A stretch of 64,000 nt of DNA from Desulfomicrobium sp. (GTDB taxonomy: Bacteria; Desulfobacterota; Desulfovibrionia; Desulfovibrionales; Desulfomicrobiaceae): assembly GCA_040768745.1 (NCBI GenBank), contig JAXGMI010000003.1, positions 32,001 to 96,000 on the forward strand, given 5' to 3'. Below are positions 31,526 to 40,552 of this stretch, piece after piece. Under the pieces are notes generated by a model. It had not been told where the DNA came from. It saw only the letters and a list, made by a program, of their open reading frames with translations, and made no database searches. Each line of letters starts with the position of its first letter. Positions within the stretch are counted from its first letter, which is position 1. Made by a program: the position numbers and the translations under genes.

Positions 31526-32968
31526 TTACGCATTTTCCCGATGCCCCAGGTCTGCAAGCAGCTCGTATGGGCTGCGGATGCCGACGCCGGTGTGCTTCGC
31601 CGTGTGCAGATAAATCTCGGTCGTGGAAATGTCCGCATGTCCCAGGAGGTCCTGCAAATCGCGAATCCCTGTTCCAGTGGCCAATAAATGCGTTGCAAAG
31701 CTGTGGCGCAACACATGGGGCGTGACGCGCTTGTCGAATCCTGCCCGCTCCGCCGCCTGGCGAATCGCTTTCTGAAATGTCGTATCCAGCACATGATGAC
31801 GGCGGATGAGGCCGTTTCTGTGGTCGCGCATCAGACTTCGAGATGGCCAGAACCAAAACCACGTGAACTTTTCGCCCGCTTTTGGCCACTTGCGTTCAAG
31901 GGCCTGGGGCAGTTCCACAGCCGGCAGATTGGCCATGCGGTCCTTGGCGTGCAGAAGGCGCAAGCGCTCGCGGTGAGCTCGCAATGGAACAACAAGCTGG
32001 GGTGGAATCATCGTCAGCCGGCTCTTGTTTCCCTTGCCGAACTGCACCGCAAGTTGAAGCCGCTCCAGATCAACATCCCTCACCCGCAGTCGCAAAAGTT
32101 CGGACAGGCGCAAACCCGAGGCGTACATAAGTTCCGCCATCAGTCGATGCGTTCCATCCATCGAGGCGAAAAGACGGGCACATTCGTCCGAGGACAGCAC
32201 GGTCGGCACCTTCCGACCACGTCGCGCACGGGTAAAATCACCAAAGTCCCCGGGCTCGCGATTGAGGACCTCACGGAAAAAGAAAACCACGGCGTTCAGT
32301 GCCTGGCTCTGGGTGGCTACGGATACTCGCTCCTTGACGGCCAGATCGGACAGCCAGCGGCGAACATCGCCATGACTCAATTCCACGAGAGGTTTATTTC
32401 CGGAAAAGGCCATGAAGCGCCGACACCATGAGCGGTATGTTTTCTCGCTGTTCCAGGCCAGGTTTTTTTCACGAATCCGTCGCACCAGCGTTTGCTCCCA
32501 CTCAGGGCCGCCCAACTCACGCGCCCCGGCAGTTGGCACGTCATTCATGGAGTAGACGCGATAGACGTCATGTACCCGGCTGGCTTTTTGTGGCGAAAGC
32601 CCTTGTGACGTATCTTGGGCCGGAACTGGTTCGATTTTGCGTTCAGCACTGTTTCCGTGACCTTGAAATCCCTTGTTCGACGCGTCACCGCTCGACAAAG
32701 ACACATAGTCTCCTGCCATGCGGTTTCGTCCTTCGCGATAGTACCATCGCAATGCCTCTTGTCGGATAGCGAAGCGCTGAGGCGAAAGATAGGATTGTTT
32801 CCAATCGAGGTGTTCTTTGAAGACTGCGGCGCATGCGGTTTTTCCAGTCTCGCGAAGCCAGTGTCTGAATTTGATGATGGACTCGCGGTAGACCCGCTGC
32901 CGATCTGACGGGACAACTTCCGCCAAAACGTGCTCCCAATCATCAAAAGAGATTACGGTTGCGTCCAT
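31526..32968 (-). CDS. intI: Integron integrase with an N-terminal extension of about 150 aa
   Basis: Tyrosine recombinase residues intact (GLRLSE, GKGNK, HVLRHSFATHLL, LLGH, TEIYLH) plus the integron-specific insertion ALERKWP..WFWFWPS....D......RRHH; divergent from an attC-bounded array. Confidence 0.95.
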   Translation of the reverse strand: MDATVISFDDWEHVLAEVVPSDRQRVYRESIIKFRHWLRETGKTACAAVFKEHLDWKQSYLSPQRFAIRQEALRWYYREGRNRMAGDYVSLSSGDASNKGFQGHGNSAERKIEPVPAQDTSQGLSPQKASRVHDVYRVYSMNDVPTAGARELGGPEWEQTLVRRIREKNLAWNSEKTYRSWCRRFMAFSGNKPLVELSHGDVRRWLSDLAVKERVSVATQSQALNAVVFFFREVLNREPGDFGDFTRARRGRKVPTVLSSDECARLFASMDGTHRLMAELMYASGLRLSELLRLRVRDVDLERLQLAVQFGKGNKSRLTMIPPQLVVPLRAHRERLRLLHAKDRMANLPAVELPQALERKWPKAGEKFTWFWFWPSRSLMRDHRNGLIRRHHVLDTTFQKAIRQAAERAGFDKRVTPHVLRHSFATHLLATGTGIRDLQDLLGHADISTTEIYLHTAKHTGVGIRSPYELLADLGHRENA

Positions 32969-33139
32969 CTCCCCTCCGGGGGCTATTCGGTGATTTCAAG
33001 CACAAGCTTTCACGACCACATAAACATGACTTGAGTCAAAACATAAAGCTGACTTCAACGTCAAGTAGCAGCAGTATACGAGGGATAATATTCTAAAATA
33101 CAAAGACATCGTCGTTGACAAATAATTGACTAAGCGCGT

Positions 33140-33203
33140 AGGGATCGGAGAAAAAATTGAGACTGCCATTTGGGCGAAGTCCGGATAATAACACTGTTCG
33201 TTT
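33140..33203 (+). promoter_or_regulatory. attI region; crossover predicted at G|TT 33196/33197
   Basis: GTTCGTT at 33196-33202 lies just before the first cassette RBS and is near-complementary to the R'' box AGCGAAC of attC1, so it marks the first cassette boundary. The left extent of attI is uncertain. Confidence 0.65.
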
Positions 33204-33769
33204 AAAGATAACGAGGTGATTCATGGCAAATTTATTTTGGAAAAAAGATGGAGTAACCAAAAGTCTTCTATCTACACCCTTCAAGACTGAAGAAGAATTT
33301 GAAAAAGAAATTTTCAACACTCGTGAAATTCTAGAAGACATATTTCTAATTAAGCGTCAAATACGCGGTGGAAACAAAAATGGAATACCAGATATTGTCG
33401 GTATAGATAATGATGGCAATATTTGTATTATAGAAATGAAAAATGTCACGGTTGATGCATCCATAATTCCTCAAGTTCTCCAATACGCCTTTTGGGCAGA
33501 AACTAATCCAGATTCAATAAAATCATTATGGCTTGAGTGTGATAACAAGCCAGACGACATCGCCATTAGCTGGGATAGCTTTCAAGTGAGAATCATTGTT
33601 ATTGCACCATCAATCTTGCGCTCAACATTAGACATTGTTGATAAGATAAACTACCCTGTTGACCTTATAGAAGTAAAAAGGTGGGTTGAAGAAAAAAACT
33701 CATTATATCTTGTTAATAAATTGGAAACTGTGTATCGGTCTACGGTTTTTTGGACACGTTTTTGGTTAA

Positions 33770-34660
33770 TCAAGCCGCAACGTTCACGGCCTCTTTCTGG
33801 ATGGCCCGCACCGCTGCCGGAGTCTTGTAGCCGTGGCGTCCAATGATCCATTCCCGGTTGTACGTCTCCTTGAACTCCAAGAGGGCAAGTCGGAGTTCCT
33901 CGACCGTATCGAACCGCCGGACCCAGAGCAGGTTTTCCTTGAGCGTGCGCACGAACCTCTCGGCGATGCCGTTGCCTTGGGGTTCTCTGACGAAAGCAGG
34001 CGAACTCCGGATGCCCAGGAAGGAAACCTCCTCTTGAAACACACTGGAAACGTACTGGCTACCATTGTCATGTCGCAGGGTCAGGCCCTCTGCCACGGCG
34101 GGTCCAAAGGCTCCAAAGCTGTGGCGCACACCTTGGCGAATCGGCTCCAGGGCTTCAAAGCGCGTCCCGTACTTAGCGGCGTGGATGCCGACACACTCCA
34201 GAGAGCAGTGGTCCACGGCCAGGAAGATCGAAGCGTTGCCTTCCTGCATGGTCATCGTCGTGGTCATGTCCGTGCCCCACATCTCGTCCACCCGGGCAGT
34301 CTTGATCGTCCCGTCATGCGCCTTGGGGCCATGCGGCCTGCCGGGCTTGCGCACTGCGAGCAGGTTGTTCTCTCTCATGATCCGAAGCGTTCGCAGGGGG
34401 GACGTTCTGATGCCCTCAAAACGCAACCTGGCCCACACTTTCCGATAGCCTTCACCAGTAAAAGGGGAGTTCTGGATGCATGCCACGATGTGCCCGAACA
34501 ACTCCCCATCACTGTGGAAGCCAATAGGGCCTCGGCGGCTTGGTGTGCCCTCATTCGCAACCTTGCGTGCATAATGCGTGGACCTGGGGAGATTCCAGAC
34601 CCGGCAAACCAGCACCAGCCCATACGTCTGACCAGTGGAGGGCGAGGTGGACCGGCTCAT
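33770..34660 (-). CDS. IS3-family transposase OrfB (DDE integrase core)
   Basis: GYRKVWARL, WGTDMT (D), HDNGSQY (D), NGIAERFVRTLKE (E), YN..W. Confidence 0.92.
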   Translation of the reverse strand: MSRSTSPSTGQTYGLVLVCRVWNLPRSTHYARKVANEGTPSRRGPIGFHSDGELFGHIVACIQNSPFTGEGYRKVWARLRFEGIRTSPLRTLRIMRENNLLAVRKPGRPHGPKAHDGTIKTARVDEMWGTDMTTTMTMQEGNASIFLAVDHCSLECVGIHAAKYGTRFEALEPIRQGVRHSFGAFGPAVAEGLTLRHDNGSQYVSSVFQEEVSFLGIRSSPAFVREPQGNGIAERFVRTLKENLLWVRRFDTVEELRLALLEFKETYNREWIIGRHGYKTPAAVRAIQKEAVNVAA

Positions 34661-35046
34661 TTCCTCGACCTCCGCAACCCCAAAGGGTCTTTTGCCTCCA
34701 TCATTCGGATCTTCTCGCGGAGCAGTTCTATCTCCATGGTCTGCTCGCCGATTTTCTCATTGAGGCGCTTGTATTCGGCCTCCTCCGCCGGAGAGCGTTT
34801 TTTGAGACTATCCGCGCCACCGGCCAGAAAGGCATCTCTCCATTGTGAGAGCGTGGCAGCCGTCACGCCGAGTTCCCGACTGAGCGTTTCGATGTCTTCA
34901 CCACGCAGAAGCCGGAGGACGGCCTCGGTCTTGTGCTGTGCCCAGAATCGCTTGGGAGTTGCCTTCGTCTCCCCGGTTCCAGTCGGCCTACGGCCTCCCT
35001 CCACCGGGGAGACGGCTGAAATATCCTTGTCGCTTTGTTTGCTCAT
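34657..35046 (-). CDS. IS3-family transposase OrfA (HTH and coiled coil)
   Basis: K.EAVLRLLRGE..E.LSRELGV...TLSQWR HTH; KIGEQTMEIELLREK zipper; ATGA overlap with orfB. Confidence 0.88.
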   Translation of the reverse strand: MSKQSDKDISAVSPVEGGRRPTGTGETKATPKRFWAQHKTEAVLRLLRGEDIETLSRELGVTAATLSQWRDAFLAGGADSLKKRSPAEEAEYKRLNEKIGEQTMEIELLREKIRMMEAKDPLGLRRSRK

Positions 35047-35527
35047 GAATCACCTCATGGGGAGTCTCTCTACTCCCAATTTGGTGTCCAAGAAAACCCT
35101 ATCCCAGAGGAACTGATCCAAAAGTATCTCGCATCAAACCAACATCAGGAATGGAGGAGTATAACGAGGAATTCTATAAAAAAGAGTACAATAAAAATAG
35201 TGCCATTGAATTTATCAAATACGCCAAGGAAGTTGAAAAGTTTGTCGCGAAAAAGGATTGGAATTTAGAAACAAAATTTAACAAACATTATTGTGGCTTC
35301 AAAGCTGGCTTCTTCAATGCTTTCGGCATTCAGTGGATTGGTACTAAAACTTTTGCTCTTTTCTTTAAGCTACCGGAAGATGAGGCCAAGAGCACAAAAA
35401 TACAAATGACGAAATACGAATCTCAATGGAAGCAAGCTGTTTATTATATTGAACCTGGAAAAACGAAAATCAGTGATTATGAACCACTTTTTGATTTGGC
35501 CTATAAGAAATTGACAGGAAATTGAAA

Positions 35528-35588
35528 AGCGAACAAGGCGCTCAAGCCGATCGCCGCTTCGCGGCTCAGGCTTAGCTCTGCGTTATGT
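35528..35588 (+). repeat. attC1 (61 bp)
   Basis: R'' AGCGAAC, L'' GCTCAAGC ... L' GCTTAGC (extra-helical C), R' GTTATGT. Confidence 0.88.
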
Positions 35589-35613
35589 GGTTCGAGCAAT
35601 TTGAGGTACAGAT

Positions 35614-36564
35614 ATGCAATTTGGGAAAATACACAAGCTGAGTCCAAGAGACATATGGCCCAAAGAGGCAAAGGATTTCACACCTTGGCTTGCCGACAAC
35701 ATCGGAGCGCTTGGTGAAGCCCTTGGAATGGAACTTGAGCTGAAGGAAACCGAAGCGGCTGTTGGGGATTTCTCATTGGATCTATTGGCAAAGGACTTGG
35801 GTTCCGGCCACACTGTAATAATTGAGAACCAATTGACTCAAACAGATCACGATCATCTCGGCAAGCTGCTGACGTATGCAGCCGGTTTCGGCGCATCAAC
35901 AGTGGTATGGGTTGCTGAAGTTGTGCGAGATGAACATAGACAGGCTTTGGAGTGGCTAAATCAGCGGACTGACGAAGACACTCAGTTTTTTGGAGTTGTT
36001 GTTGAGGTCTTCAAGATTGACGATTCTAAACCCGCCTACAGCTTTAAACCGGTCGTTTCTCCAAGCGAATGGCAGAAATCAAGAAAAAGGCAAGCTATCG
36101 AAACTGTCTCCGCGAAAGGAGAGATGTACCGTAATTACTTCCAGGCATTGATTGATGAGCTTAGAGAAAAACACCAGTTCACAAATGCGAAGGTTGGGCA
36201 ACCTCAGAATTGGTATTCCTTTTCTTCTGGCATTTCTGGCATCACTTTTGGCGCTGTCTTCGTGCAAGGGGGCAAGGCACGTACTGAGTTTTACATAGAC
36301 TTTGGCGAAGGTGAGAAGAACAAGGCATTGTTTGATTGGCTATACGATAAAAGAGACGAAATTCACTCGAAATTGGGTAAAGAACTCGAGTGGGAACGTC
36401 TTGATGATAAGAGGGCTTCACGCATTGCGGTCTATAGGGACGGTTCAATTCAATCCAGTGAAGCCGAGCTAATGGAAATTAAGGCCTGGCATGTTGAAAA
36501 TCTTATCAATTTCAAGAGGATCTTGACTCCTCTTATAAAGAAAGAGATCAAGGTACATGCGTGA
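35614..36564 (+). CDS. Cassette 2: DUF4268 domain protein with an N-terminal endonuclease-like (D..ENQ) domain
   Basis: R..W..EA.DFTPWL..N, DLLAKD...VIIENQL..TDHDHLGKLLTYAAG; C-terminal LEWERLDDKRASRI. Confidence 0.85.
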   Translation: MQFGKIHKLSPRDIWPKEAKDFTPWLADNIGALGEALGMELELKETEAAVGDFSLDLLAKDLGSGHTVIIENQLTQTDHDHLGKLLTYAAGFGASTVVWVAEVVRDEHRQALEWLNQRTDEDTQFFGVVVEVFKIDDSKPAYSFKPVVSPSEWQKSRKRQAIETVSAKGEMYRNYFQALIDELREKHQFTNAKVGQPQNWYSFSSGISGITFGAVFVQGGKARTEFYIDFGEGEKNKALFDWLYDKRDEIHSKLGKELEWERLDDKRASRIAVYRDGSIQSSEAELMEIKAWHVENLINFKRILTPLIKKEIKVHA

Positions 36565-36566
36565 CC

Positions 36567-36657
36567 GCATAACCCGGCATTCAACCGGACGCGGAACACA
36601 GTTTGTTTTATTTTCCCCGGCGTTTTGTGCGCCGCGCCGGTTAATTTTGTGTTAGGC
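36567..36657 (+). repeat. attC2 (91 bp)
   Basis: R'' GCATAAC, L'' ATTCAACC ... L' GGTTAAT, R' GTTAGGC. Confidence 0.9.
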
Positions 36658-36691
36658 AGACCCTGCGGGCGGCAATCCTAAGGAGTTAATT

Positions 36692-37795
36692 TTGAGATAC
36701 TTCATAGACCTGTTTTCTCCTCAAACATTCTCAAAATTCTTAGCTTCAGATAAAAGCATTTCTGGATATGGGAAGAGACAGGAGGGAATTGCAAGTACTA
36801 TAAAAAAGGGAGACCTGTTTATCTGTTACTTAACCAAGGTTTCCCGATTTTGTGGCATTTTAGAGGTCCAAGATAAGTATCTCATAGACTCTACTCCTAT
36901 CTTCACAGATGAAGACGATCCATACATTGTTAGATTTAAGGTAAAACCAATCGTCCTTTTGGATATAGATAAGTCTATTCCGATATTTGAAGATATTCTT
37001 TGGAAAGAACTACATTTTACTCAGGATAAAATGTGGACATCAATGATTAGGTCGAGCCTACGGGAATTAAATGAACATGATGGAAAGATATTGATAAATG
37101 CCCTTATGAATCAAATCGGAGATAATGCAAAGCAGTATCAATTAACAGAGGTAGATCAGAAAAAGCTTAAGCTCCAGAAGCATACCGTAAAGACTCATGA
37201 AAAAGTAATAACTGTTTCTGTTCCAGAAAATGAAACCGACAATAAGAACTCGGTAACCGAAGATATTGAGGTAAGAGAATCAATTAAGATACAAGCAGAA
37301 TTGGCAAGAATTGGTGATCAAATGGGAATGAAAATATGGATTCCTAGATCTGATCGCCAACGAGTATTATTATATTTAAAGGGTAAATTTGACAGTTTTG
37401 TTGATAGTCTTCCTCTAAACTATGACTCAACCACATTAACTACAATTGAGAATATAGATGTCCTATGGCTTAAAGGAAGATCAATTATAAGAGCTTTTGA
37501 GGTTGAACATACAACATCTATATATTCAGGAATTTTACGAATGGCAGATTTAATGGCTTTGCAGCCAAATCTTGATATTAGGGCTCACATTGTTGCCCCA
37601 GAAGAAAGAAAGGAAAAGGTTTTTCAGGAAATAACTAGACCGGTATTCTCTTTACTAGAAGGTAGACCACTTTCAGAAAGATGCACATTTATTTCATATG
37701 ATTCTGTTCTCGAATTAGCAAAGGAAAAGCGATTGCAATATATGAATGACATGGTTTTGGAAGAGTATCAAGAATATGGATCAGAAGATGCCTAA
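36692..37795 (+). CDS. Cassette 3: EVE/PUA-like domain fused to a PD-(D/E)xK-like nuclease domain
   Basis: N-terminal IKKGDLFICYLTKVSRFCGILEV..P..RFKVKP (EVE-like); C-terminal IDVLW......AFEVEHTTSIYSGILRM.DL. TTG start after AAGGAG; the stop lies inside the attC3 R''. Confidence 0.75.
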   Translation: MRYFIDLFSPQTFSKFLASDKSISGYGKRQEGIASTIKKGDLFICYLTKVSRFCGILEVQDKYLIDSTPIFTDEDDPYIVRFKVKPIVLLDIDKSIPIFEDILWKELHFTQDKMWTSMIRSSLRELNEHDGKILINALMNQIGDNAKQYQLTEVDQKKLKLQKHTVKTHEKVITVSVPENETDNKNSVTEDIEVRESIKIQAELARIGDQMGMKIWIPRSDRQRVLLYLKGKFDSFVDSLPLNYDSTTLTTIENIDVLWLKGRSIIRAFEVEHTTSIYSGILRMADLMALQPNLDIRAHIVAPEERKEKVFQEITRPVFSLLEGRPLSERCTFISYDSVLELAKEKRLQYMNDMVLEEYQEYGSEDA

Positions 37796-37890
37796 CAAAC
37801 GCTTCAACTGGACTCGGTGCCCTGAAGCCTAGACCTACGGACGCTAGCCTGGAAACACAGGTACCTCGCCAGTTAAGCGAAATGTTCGGC
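37790..37890 (+). repeat. attC3 (101 bp)
   Basis: R'' GCCTAAC, CTTCAACTGG ... CCAGTTAAG, R' GTTCGGC. Confidence 0.9.
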
Positions 37891-37906: not shown

Positions 37907-38602
37907 ATGAACACACCATGGCAATACAATGAAACGGCTCAGGTAGGAACTGACTACTGCAACGAGAGCGAAGTCGCTGCGTATGACGAGCGGATGCAGA
38001 AACTTCGCAATACGGGTGCCGAGGCAACAGACATCGCAAAAGCTCTGAACCTCTCGGCAGACTCAACCGTATGGGAGATCGGTACTGGCACAGGAGAGTG
38101 CGCCATTGCCCTCTGTGATGTGGTCAAACATGTCTACGCCACGGATGTTTCTCCGGCGATGCTTGAGTGCGCCCGGCGAAAAGCGAACCAGCGCGGTATT
38201 ACGAATATCACGTTTGCAAATGGAGGGTTCCTGTCAGGATTCCGTCCTGATCATTCCGTAGATGGGGTCGTCACTCAACTGGCATTGCATCACCTCCCGG
38301 ACTTTTGGAAGTTTAGAGCCATTTCAGCAATCGCAAACAGTCTTCGTCCCAAAGGGCGTCTATATCTTCGCGATGTTGTTTTCTCTTCGGCAACTGTTGA
38401 TTACGATGCCTTCTTCCAAGTTGTAATAGAGGGTGTTAGATCAAGCGCAGGCGACGATGTGGCAGAGCAAACGGTACAGCACATCAAGACCGAGTTTTCG
38501 ACACTGGATTGGATCCTTGAAGGAATGATCGAGCGCAATGGATTGACCATCGTCGAAAGAAGACAGGAAGGATTCCTGTCGGTCTATATCTGTGAAAAAT
38601 GA
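37907..38602 (+). CDS. Cassette 4: class I SAM-dependent methyltransferase
   Basis: VWEIGTGTG, ATDVSPAML, ALHHLPDFWK, LRPKGRLYLRD. Confidence 0.9.
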   Translation: MNTPWQYNETAQVGTDYCNESEVAAYDERMQKLRNTGAEATDIAKALNLSADSTVWEIGTGTGECAIALCDVVKHVYATDVSPAMLECARRKANQRGITNITFANGGFLSGFRPDHSVDGVVTQLALHHLPDFWKFRAISAIANSLRPKGRLYLRDVVFSSATVDYDAFFQVVIEGVRSSAGDDVAEQTVQHIKTEFSTLDWILEGMIERNGLTIVERRQEGFLSVYICEK

Positions 38603-38604
38603 AA

Positions 38605-38665
38605 GCCGAACCATGCCCTCCTGCGTACGTCGCTATCGCGCCGCCGCAGAGAGCTGACGTTAGGT
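38605..38665 (+). repeat. attC4 (61 bp)
   Basis: R'' GCCGAAC, CTCCTGCG ... CGCAGAG, R' GTTAGGT. Confidence 0.85.
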
Positions 38666-38682: not shown

Positions 38683-39132
38683 ATGAATCTCTTAGAAAAG
38701 CTGTTCCGTTCTAAATCTCCGAAACTTCAAAAGGCATCCGGTGAGTTCAAAACTTCGGGAGAGTTAATTGCCGAAGTAACGGACGGAGCAAATCTAGTAG
38801 AAGGTCAGCAAACTTGGGAAGTTGCCGAAGAAAAGAAGCACGATTTAGAAGCAATGAAAAAGTGCTGTGATGCAGAGCTTAAAACAATGGCAACAGCAGA
38901 CATCGTTGCCGCTCCCTATTACTTTGAACGCGTTGCTATTCTTTCCCGCAAAGATAAAAACTATGCTCAAGAAATTGCGTACTGTGAGAAATATATTCAG
39001 TTAGTAGAGGCCTACTACCGTAAGCACGGCACAACAGGTATTGCTGATGTTCGTAAAGGCCCACGGTTCCAGGCTATTCAAAAGCGACTACCCAAAGCCA
39101 AGGAGCTTTTAGCTCGTGCCAATGCCACCTAA
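38683..39132 (+). CDS. Cassette 5: hypothetical helical protein (149 aa)
   Basis: ATG after CAGGA; fills the space between attC4 and attC5; stop lies in R''; TPR-like segment PYYFERVAILSRKDKNYAQEIAYCEKYI. Confidence 0.8.
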   Translation: MNLLEKLFRSKSPKLQKASGEFKTSGELIAEVTDGANLVEGQQTWEVAEEKKHDLEAMKKCCDAELKTMATADIVAAPYYFERVAILSRKDKNYAQEIAYCEKYIQLVEAYYRKHGTTGIADVRKGPRFQAIQKRLPKAKELLARANAT

Positions 39133-39222
39133 CAATTCAATCAACCTGACCGCCCAAAGCTACGCTTTGGGTTCCCTCCGTTGCTGCGCAACTCCGGCGG
39201 CAGGTTATTTCCAACGTTAGGC
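39127..39222 (+). repeat. attC5 (96 bp, branched central region)
   Basis: R'' ACCTAAC, ATCAACCTG ... CAGGTTAT, internal hairpins CCCAAAGC/GCTTTGGG and GTTGC/GCAAC, R' GTTAGGC. Confidence 0.9.
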
Positions 39223-39275: not shown

Positions 39276-39301
39276 TATTATTAGTGTGGCGGAGGTGGCC
39301 T

Positions 39302-39559
39302 GTGAGAGCAAGCATTGTTCGTATCGGAAATTCGCAAGGAATCCGAATCCCGAAAGTGGTGTTGGAGCAAACACAGCTTGAGGGGGAAGTCGAGTTAGAG
39401 GTGAAGGACAGAGAGATTTTGATTCGAGCGGTTTCCAAGCCTCGTCAGGATTGGGCTCAGAAGTTCAAAGCGATGGCGGAAAAAGGGGACGACAAGCTGT
39501 TGGACAGTTCTTCTATTGACCAAACTTCTTGGGACAAGGAAGAATGGGAATGGAAGTAA
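39302..39559 (+). CDS. mazE: Cassette 6: AbrB/MazE family antitoxin
   Basis: IVRIGNSQGIRIPK swapped-hairpin motif, PRQDWAQKF, acidic W-rich tail; GGAGG RBS with GTG start. Confidence 0.9.
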   Translation: MRASIVRIGNSQGIRIPKVVLEQTQLEGEVELEVKDREILIRAVSKPRQDWAQKFKAMAEKGDDKLLDSSSIDQTSWDKEEWEWK

Positions 39560-39873
39560 AAAGATTCGATGTATTCCTAGTGAATTTAGACCCTACTGTT
39601 GGTCATGAAATAAAGAAAAGTCGTCCCTGTCTGGTGATATCCCCTGATGAGATGAACAAATTCATAACCACTGTGATTGTTGCACCGATGACGACCAAGG
39701 GTAGAGATTATCCAACCCGAGTCTCTTGTGTATTTCAAGGCAAGGAAGGCCAAATTGTTTTGGATCAGATCCGAACTGTGGACAAGGCGAGACTGGCTAA
39801 GCGCTTGGGTAAAATCGACACGGAAACTCAAGTGAAAGTCTTCTCTGGTTTGGCAGAGCTATTTTCGGAATGA
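39550..39873 (+). CDS. mazF: Cassette 6: PemK/MazF family mRNA interferase toxin
   Basis: FDVFLVNLDPTVGHEIKKSRPCLVIS, VAPMTT, LDQIRTVDKARL; overlaps the antitoxin. Confidence 0.93.
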   Translation: MEVKRFDVFLVNLDPTVGHEIKKSRPCLVISPDEMNKFITTVIVAPMTTKGRDYPTRVSCVFQGKEGQIVLDQIRTVDKARLAKRLGKIDTETQVKVFSGLAELFSE

Positions 39874-39877
39874 AAGG

Positions 39878-39989
39878 GCCTAACTACAGGCTGAAGCTGA
39901 CGGCTCCTTCGTTCACGCCGCTTGCAGTCTATAACTGTCCTTGGCAAGCGGGCGTGCCCTCAACCCGGAGCTTAGCCTGGGCGTTGGGC
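39878..39989 (+). repeat. attC6 (112 bp)
   Basis: R'' GCCTAAC, GGCTGAAGCT ... AGCTTAGCC, internal CACGCC-GCTTGC / GCAAGC-GGGCGTG stem, R' GTTGGGC. Confidence 0.9.
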
Positions 39990-40004: not shown

Positions 40005-40379
40005 GTGTCAGACCTCAAAGAACCCAGGGTCCTTTTCGCCGCAGAGAGAACGTTGCTTGCTTGGAATAGGACAAGCCTCTCACTGATAGCGTTCGGATTT
40101 GTCGTGGAGCGTGCGGGCCTGCTAATCCAGGCCCTGCGACCCGAGGCCGTTCACCCGCAGCAGCTTGAGCTGACTTTCTGGCTCGGTCTCGCATTGATAA
40201 TGCTCGGGGCAGTTACATCCGCGTATTCAGCCCGGCAATATGGAATCGTCCTGAAGTCGCTGACCCCTGCGGAGTTTCCGCCGGGCTACGCTGCAAGGTG
40301 GGGGTTGGCTGTTAATGTCGTGGTCGCAGTGCTGGGCGCAGCCTTAGCTGGTGTGCTTATTTTCTGGCGCATTACCTGA
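40005..40379 (+). CDS. Cassette 7: DUF202 / YidH family membrane protein
   Basis: EPRVLFAAERTLLAWNRTSLSLIAFGF signature, three TM segments; AAGGAG RBS with GTG start. Confidence 0.88.
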   Translation: MSDLKEPRVLFAAERTLLAWNRTSLSLIAFGFVVERAGLLIQALRPEAVHPQQLELTFWLGLALIMLGAVTSAYSARQYGIVLKSLTPAEFPPGYAARWGLAVNVVVAVLGAALAGVLIFWRIT

Positions 40380-40387
40380 GTGTTAGC

Positions 40388-40431
40388 GCCCAACAATTCG
40401 TTGCAGTCGCGACGGCCCTGACGGGCCGCGG
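40388..40431 (+). repeat. attC7, truncated (L' and R' missing)
   Basis: R'' GCCCAAC (complement of GTTGGGC), L'' GTTGCAG, central hairpin CGGCCC-tgac-GGGCCG, then no L' or GTT box. Confidence 0.75.
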
Positions 40432-40552
40432 ATTGCTGCGTCCCGGAGGCTTCCTTGCTTTCACCGACGCGGTCTGGCGCAAGGGAGACCCGCCACAGGA
40501 GGTCAAGGCGAGTTTCGATCTGGATTACCCGACCATCTGCACGAACCATTGA
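40427..40552 (+). pseudogene. Internal fragment of a class I SAM methyltransferase (relic cassette)
   Basis: Startless frame RGLLRPGGFLAFTDAVWRKGDPPQEVKASFDLDYPTICTNH*; LLRPGG followed by hydrophobic residues and TD is typical of methyltransferase post-motif III. Confidence 0.6.

Follow-up and report, generated by a model that had tools for sequence, protein, structure and literature searches.

The window, by which we mean the whole stretch of 64,000 nucleotides of Desulfomicrobium sp. DNA that was analysed, carries an integron integrase gene (intI) whose product is extended at its N-terminus, and the question raised by this locus is what the additional segment is and what it might do beside an attI site. 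The protein shares with canonical integron integrases (IntIs; IntI1, VchIntIA of PDB 2A3V, TIGR02249) the core-binding and catalytic domains and the catalytic residues, and the locus has, like theirs, an attI site, attC-bounded cassettes and a divergently oriented intI. It differs from them in about 140 extra N-terminal residues, comprising a second core-binding-like domain and a linker, and in the placement of the cassette promoter Pc and a set of repeats outside the gene, in a 230-bp spacer. The positions of all features are summarized in Table 1.

Table 1. Features of the integron and its integrase, with positions counted from the first base of the window
Feature	Positions	Strand	Basis
intI, long-form integron integrase, 480 aa	31526..32968	-	ORF, Pfam, TIGR02249
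Extra N-terminal domain, aa 1-87, four predicted helices, predicted core-binding (SAM-like) fold	32708..32968	-	AF2, Foldseek, VIA, dN/dS
Variable linker, aa 88-135, predicted disordered	32564..32707	-	pLDDT <50; 13% mean identity; dN/dS
Conserved pre-core motif, aa 136-155, contains Met141	32504..32563	-	70% mean identity
Canonical core-binding domain, aa 156-240	32249..32503	-	PF13495, E 1.7e-20
Catalytic domain, aa 256-465, R-K-H-R-H-Y and IntI-type insertion	31574..32203	-	PF00589, E 7.8e-33; TIGR02249
Shine-Dalgarno of intI	32969..32977	-	Sequence; anti-SD pairing -10.0 kcal/mol
16-bp repeat, middle copy, degenerate, 12.3 bits	33018..33033	+	Alignment, matrix
16-bp repeat, distal copy, 21.1 bits	33041..33056	+	Alignment, matrix
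Putative -35 of intI promoter, TTGACG	33059..33064	-	Layout in relatives; matching -10 poor in the window
Conserved TTGAC, putative -35 of cassette promoter Pc	33115..33120	+	36-region alignment; not called by scanner
attI: left arm starting GAAGT (repeat-like), spacer, R core	33176..33202	+	Conserved block, matrix
Cassette 1, nuclease-like gene split by IS (33731 to about 35115)	33223..35525	+	Pfam/profile matches
attC 1	35529..35590	+	R''/R' boxes; folds, z -0.8
attC 2, after DUF4268 gene 35614-36564	36567..36657	+	R''/R' boxes; z -0.3
attC 3, after EVE-domain gene 36692-37795	37790..37890	+	R''/R' boxes; z -2.9
attC 4, after methyltransferase gene 37907-38602	38605..38665	+	R''/R' boxes; z -1.6
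attC 5	39127..39222	+	R''/R' boxes; z -3.9
attC 6, after MazE/PemK-type toxin-antitoxin cassette 39284-39873	39878..39989	+	R''/R' boxes; z -2.9
Truncated attC after DUF202 gene, R'' present, no R', array end	40387..40480	+	Box search

The R-K-H-R-H-Y residues are catalytic in tyrosine recombinases, and in the window protein the set is complete (R287, K312/K315, H418, R421, H444 and Y453) and invariant across 25 aligned full-length homologues. The product scores 356 bits against TIGR02249 (cut-off 265) over residues 161-469, with profile positions 5-313 of 315 covered in a single stretch that includes the IntI-specific insertion (I2 helix region), whereas Xer models match it in pieces only. 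In the structural model the I2 helix region has low pLDDT; the catalytic part finds VchIntIA (2a3v) as its top Foldseek match. The gene encodes an intact integron integrase, as the earlier note had claimed, and heads a cassette array. Pfam recognizes Phage_int_SAM_4 at residues 161-238 only, leaving the preceding segment without a family assignment.

The extra N-terminal domain is likely translated, judging from the start signals. The sequence GGAGGGGAG stands immediately 5' of the intI ATG at 32968, while anti-Shine-Dalgarno (anti-SD) pairing detects no ribosome site ahead of the internal Met141 in the window gene. Across 26 loci, the median pairing energy is -9.1 kcal/mol at the upstream ATG and -3.2 kcal/mol at Met141, and values of -6 kcal/mol or lower are reached at the upstream ATG in 19 loci and at Met141 in two; the proposal that a ribosome-binding site at the first ATG makes translation of the extension probable is borne out, and the upstream start is favoured over an internal one. 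That the extension is a passenger, with translation from Met141 yielding a normal-length enzyme, is hardly credible. Met141 is found in 21 of the 26 loci, and one same-genus relative has lost most of the domain with the downstream frame open; against this, the strong ribosome site lies at the upstream ATG only, the N-domain has a dN/dS of 0.10-0.21 in eight of nine pairs (the ninth being saturated), and, of the 45 short members, five that sit within long lineages still show N-domain remnants in a different frame. The relative concerned (L046; G025:C17, about 40050-40310), from the one genome among 24 of the same genus that gave a match, occupies the same chromosomal site; of its N-domain about the first 33 codons survive, a perfect inverted repeat of about 28 bp standing where the others were lost, the remainder of intI is open and 91% identical, and the first cassette differs from that of the window. 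Contigs of three metatranscriptome runs from one study, which may hold DNA and are silent on strand, start and level, cover parts of intI, N-domain included, and none of them covers the region from 33017 to about 33318.

The extra domain is conserved and under purifying selection: averaged over 47 full-length sequences, residues 6-83 reach 63% identity, the canonical core-binding domain 72% and the catalytic domain 81%. Residues 1-87 are predicted to fold as a tyrosine-recombinase core-binding domain. The AlphaFold2 (AF2) model is all-helical, with four helices and a pLDDT of 89.5, and tyrosine recombinases occupy Foldseek ranks 1-6, led by VchIntIA (TM 0.60, E 0.72) and followed by XerA, Tre/Cre and XerD, at non-significant E-values of about 0.7 or worse. 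In VIA, ranks 1-6 of 48,161 chains are N-domains of tyrosine recombinases (rmsd 2.4-3.1 Å over 72-79 residues; VchIntIA Z 7.6), with Z scores of 7.2-8.4, where values of 7-8 on small helical domains fall in the noise or middling range stated for the tool. The nearest named ESM Atlas clusters include SAM_4, SAM_1 and SAM_2, and a sequence search of solved structures with the N-domain profile returned nothing significant. Both conservation and a core-binding-like model are thus found in the segment for which a SAM-like fold had been proposed. Rank 7 in VIA is SroF, which represses transcription with an integrase-like fold (bioRxiv 10.1101/2025.11.27.690993, available in part); SroF and MrpR (PDB 9rd5, 8a0a) illustrate that the tyrosine-recombinase fold can serve as a transcriptional repressor, but both are described as phage regulators, while the window domain forms part of an integrase whose catalytic residues are intact.

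The layout resembles that of lambda Int-type recombinases in having three domains, the additional N-terminal module of which is expected to read accessory DNA. In the available part of a recombinase survey (bioRxiv 10.1101/542381), integron integrases are classed as arm-less and arm-binding domains contain beta strands. The window N-domain differs from the lambda Int arm-binding domain in being predicted as an all-helical core-binding fold; identity with an arm-binding domain of that type was rejected, beta strands being absent from the confident model. Another IntI (L135:1240-1500, plus strand) bears an N-terminal addition of another kind, with a weak likeness to HARP (PF07443, E 0.0036), and a stretch in L123 is similar to it by eye only.

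The origin of the domain was addressed by comparing it with the canonical core-binding domain of the same protein and with those of other integrases. Direct comparison gives little: BLASTP between the two domains yields a 17-residue match only, profile-profile alignment of the two window-type domains reaches a probability of 3.8% and a score of 18.3 (maximum of 60 column shuffles, 18.6), and the N-domain against core-binding domains of short IntIs reaches a profile probability of 8.6%. A chain through relatives connects them, however, with 97.8% between window-type and sister N-domains, 92.5% between sister and other long forms, and 98.3% between other long-form N-domains and the core-binding domains of short IntIs. 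An iterated HMM picks up the window-type N-domain (reversed control at most 6.2 bits). Among 59 N-domains not of the window type, 40 match PF13495 at E ≤ 0.01, with 29 exceeding the family cut-off, and the Xer-type SAM_1 model matches none of the 59; PF13495 gives no match to the window N-domain itself and weak ones to 3 of 21 window-type domains (best E 0.005). Since homology appears only via relatives and direct similarity is at chance level, the tandem duplication that the earlier note had read here is right as to a core-binding homologue in origin, but the domain is not a copy of this protein's own domain, and a recent duplication was rejected on the same comparisons. Similarly, the alignment made by eye of residues 10-83 with 156-235 has the right register but no direct significance. 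On these profile comparisons the duplication is ancient and common to many lineages. HMMER over 1.84 billion representatives returned 117 matches, mostly short proteins whose context is unrecorded, so stand-alone N-domains cannot be claimed.

The two core-binding-like domains are joined by a segment of two parts. A linker of about 70 residues had been described, of which residues 88-135 are indeed variable, whereas residues 136-155 are conserved. In the variable part dN/dS is 0.53-1.57 in six of nine pairs, the others being saturated, and the distance from N-domain to conserved motif ranges over 25-94 residues (41 of the 47 rows, those with both located). The conserved part is a 20-residue motif (MNDVP...DLGG) directly before the canonical core-binding domain; it is of low confidence in the model and could be the docking point of the N-domain. 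The full-length model has no confident contact between domains (pTM 0.39).

Long integrases are not peculiar to this genome. Residues 1-150, used as a query, picked out 29 of 138 candidate proteins, the window's own included. The N-domain is encoded in 42 of 91 pattern-matched GTDB stretches, mostly Kiritimatiellia, Lentisphaerae and Verrucomicrobiota records, and in a 454-aa IntI of a Thiodictyon plasmid. An IntI above the cut-off occurs in 154 of 301 genomes of the class of genome G001 and in 91 of 251 of the window's phylum. Of 146 distinct intact IntI cores, a sample biased towards best-scoring rows and matches to the window's own protein, 90 carry the N-domain, 45 lack it and 11 have too little upstream DNA; short forms are also present in both host groups sampled. 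The idea of a distinct architecture has to be qualified, as on these counts the long form is common, and it was noted in print in 2008: in the available text of Nemergut et al. (PMC2426708), the deltaproteobacterial IntIs of 'clade 15' are about 120 aa longer than usual, and the extra length is read as one shared 'gene fusion', probably functional. The fused part and its function are not given in that text; here it is a core-binding homologue, found also in Kiritimatiellia and the Thiodictyon plasmid IntI, and its likeness to clade 15 is by description, not by sequence. The architecture had been half-noticed, and it has stood unexplained since 2008. A literature search, with subscription journals mostly outside its coverage, found no paper naming the duplicated domain or the repeats, and the available parts of PMC3414803 and bioRxiv 10.1101/542381 mention neither domain identity nor repeats. 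The mechanistic work surveyed concerns the short IntI1 and VchIntIA, while the three-domain form is frequent in both environmental groups sampled.

In the trees, the sub-lineage of the window is a single branch (support 1.0 and, in the IQ-TREE quick tree, 99) with mostly Kiritimatiellia members. The window and L046, L041, L045 and L008, which belong to its order or to named Desulfovibrionales records, form one clade nested among the Kiritimatiellia, and this nesting suggests a single transfer of the sub-lineage integron into sulfate reducers. Long lineages are basal in FastTree, but the base is open in the IQ-TREE quick tree, and the AU test (p 0.546) does not reject a root that separates long from short forms, with a rooting sample of two Xer outgroups and two host groups only. 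Ancestry of the long form was accordingly dropped as a conclusion, although the two-domain front end may be ancestral, the clinical short integrases having arisen by its loss.

This distribution bears on the possibility that the extra domain is an intramolecular brake, occupying the DNA-binding face or competing with the canonical domain in hosts without LexA control of intI, which we regard as distinctly unlikely. According to the available part of PMC3108266, the beta/gamma-proteobacterial form alone was found to have LexA boxes, and lost control was linked to integrase inactivation; long forms are also common in both groups sampled. The same groups nevertheless contain short forms, the full-length model offers no confident inter-domain contact, and a brake leaves the repeats of the spacer unexplained.

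These repeats were defined from an alignment of 36 upstream regions, in which a 16-bp box with the consensus GCATAAAGCCTACTTC recurs. In the usual layout a single inverted copy adjoins the ribosome site and a pair of direct copies is spaced 23-24 bp apart; in some members the middle copy is absent and a copy abuts attI instead. In the window there are two copies, one strong box and one weak box, and an inverted copy at the ribosome site is not detectable by the matrix. The attI left arm starts with the same GAAGTAGGCT as the box, on the other strand, and in the commonest variant 12 of 16 positions match. The inner half of the box, TTATGC, is its least variable part and departs from the attI arm, and the window's own attI arm scores -8.9 bits against the box matrix. 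Two other explanations were set aside: only one half resembles a dif-like box (compared with Xer arms), and an mRNA hairpin between inverted copies is unable to explain relatives without the middle copy. Rfam holds no relevant family.

The boxes are strongly tied to one sub-lineage. In an unguided search, a 14-mer present at least three times turns up in 16 of the 24 spacers from the sub-lineage, against 5 of the 95 others. With the matrix, at least two sites occur in 19 of 24 sub-lineage members, a partly circular figure because the matrix was built from the sub-lineage itself, and in six of seven broken members, but in none of 13 sister, 41 other long and 41 short integrons. A motif-first metagenome scan returned 21 loci, many of them near-copies, of which 19 have a window-type N-domain 96-99 nt downstream; of the remaining two, one runs into a contig end and the other is an attI platform. 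Across five whole genomes, integron platforms account for 22 of 26 motif matches, and a strict tandem pattern, which missed known degenerate copies, gave five matches in three of the 301 genomes of G001's class, all at such platforms. Judged from sequence, the 16-bp repeats and their restriction to the window's sub-lineage are a new finding, none being detected in the 95 other integrons tested by matrix. A second, decayed copy of the intI-attI spacer lies in G001 (L184; G001:C10, about 66700-66900), whose genome has an intact platform elsewhere.

The position of the boxes is operator-like. In relatives the distal box fills the -35/-10 spacer of the putative intI promoter: 19 of 26 loci have it behind TTG(A/C) within a spacer of 17 bp, and 11 of the 19 have a plausible -10; the window is not among these 11, and a sigma-70 consensus scan of its intI-attI spacer called no promoter. 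Such a layout, with copies in the promoter spacer, in the +1 region and, inverted, at the ribosome site, would suit a host transcription factor, the link with the N-domain then reflecting shared ancestry only. We consider this very unlikely: the window's genome holds two matches of at least 16 bits against four in the reversed genome, so that no regulon is apparent, and the motif is kept in hosts of two phyla and in platforms without intI. LexA-type control, with a motif shared between the box and the lexA and recA promoters, was rejected on its scores, the best box upstream of three lexA genes reaching 4.2 bits and none being found at recA of the window's genome (G000).

Platforms without an integrase were found in genome G002, which has three of them (L049, L050 and L051; G002:C1:117959, C2:261038 and C2:1751579) beside the intact integron L025. 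Each retains attI, three boxes at exact consensus and only the last codons of intI, and is followed by a different, attC-bearing first cassette. No alignment to the intact copy is left in the DNA between their boxes, and the platforms may derive from another intact integron. They count as one origin, being near-identical to one another. L051 is followed by a Mu-type portal gene (PF06074), the start of which also comes after L049, L050 and the intact L025, so a Mu-like element may have multiplied the platforms. Another attI platform (L191 and L210; G336:C415:185-440) has three boxes, of which two are inverted, as is usual, and the third is direct, and no intI start in the 184 bases available upstream.

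Two questions meet in these observations: how attI is recognized, and how integrases are restrained where LexA boxes are absent. The reading that we favour, held tentatively at a little under an even chance, is that the extra domain, on a flexible tether, reads or bridges the 16-bp boxes and docks the integrase beside attI. The integrase would dock on candidate boxes between its own gene and attI, and it is itself the probable binder since the box resembles the attI left arm, has accompanied the gene from one phylum to another and is nearly absent elsewhere in host genomes; the extra domain would be the part that reads or bridges them. Cassette insertion at attI would be the main use of docking, as the retention of boxes in intI-less platforms suggests, and strand exchange would fall, as it does in other IntIs, to the canonical core-binding and catalytic domains. 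Less firmly, the same binding might also dampen intI transcription, given that boxes overlap the putative promoter and adjoin the ribosome site. The suggestion that an extra domain contacts accessory sites as in lambda Int is plausible in this form and has gained a concrete candidate site, although the fold is of the core-binding and not the arm-binding, beta-strand type.

A precedent exists in attI1, in which the accessory sites DR1 and DR2 lie upstream of the L and R boxes (PMC4792948, PMC8946536) and favour attI1 x attC recombination (PMC8946536), both papers being available in part. The window-type boxes are alike in being extra integrase-type sites upstream of the L/R boxes; they differ in their 16-bp length, their distance of about 120-200 bp from the crossover, the inverted copy of most relatives, the overlap with the putative intI promoter and their association with an extra protein domain. 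This precedent also allows a reading in which the repeats are ordinary monomer sites of the canonical two-domain clamp, analogous to DR1/DR2, and the extra domain has a role general to all long forms, such as non-specific DNA tethering or stabilization of the synapse by protein contacts; we judge it possible, if somewhat unlikely. The clamp could bind the box alone, because the box resembles a whole attI arm (the 12 matching positions given above). Most long integrases keep the domain without the repeats, all 54 outside the sub-lineage lacking matrix-detectable copies, so that the repeats cannot explain the domain in general. Covariation of motif variants with N-domain residues was sought, and none was preferential, the best columns being mostly in the catalytic domain and tracking the tree. 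What speaks against the clamp acting alone is that the most invariant part of the box, its inner half, is unlike the attI arm, and that the sub-lineage N-domain has diverged from other long forms and is yet conserved at the level given above, as a new specificity would give. The domain type and the repeats arose together on one branch, which counts as a single event.

A stronger version of box reading by the extra domain, in which the duplicated domain is a sequence-specific reader forming a lambda-like accessory system that licenses attI, satellites in trans included, and provides self-repression independent of LexA, is in our estimate unlikely as a whole. If true, integrons would gain a lambda-like accessory-site system and a means of self-repression without LexA; in the available part of a 2022 review of integrase regulation (PMC8876359), the terms 'autoregul' and 'self-regul' are absent by count. 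The function of the domain becomes directly testable, since in this sub-lineage a defined domain comes with a 16-bp candidate site, both exist in natural variants, and platforms lacking intI are at hand.

Beyond the boxes, the locus has the parts of a complete integron. The attI site adjoins intI, with a predicted crossover at G33196/T33197; in relatives the conserved attI block runs as far as GTT, after which come first cassettes that vary. The array, a low-GC stretch head to head with intI, contains six complete attC sites and one truncated site. Folding of the complete sites against shuffles gives z below -2.8 in three of six, and a covariance model from the seven sites contains no base pairs. 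A further suggestion, that the extra domain lets the enzyme tolerate non-canonical attC boxes, finds no footing here, as the attC sites of the window look ordinary by box search and folding. The first cassette gene is split by an insertion sequence (33731-35115; rve, HTH_21 and HTH_Tnp_1) flanked by a 5-bp direct repeat, which we take to be IS3-like, and an IS-free allele of the cassette occurs in two of four public runs. The first three cassettes (33223-37795) encode nuclease-like or DNA-reader proteins (weak NucS-like, DUF4268 and EVE), and their products are possibly anti-phage.
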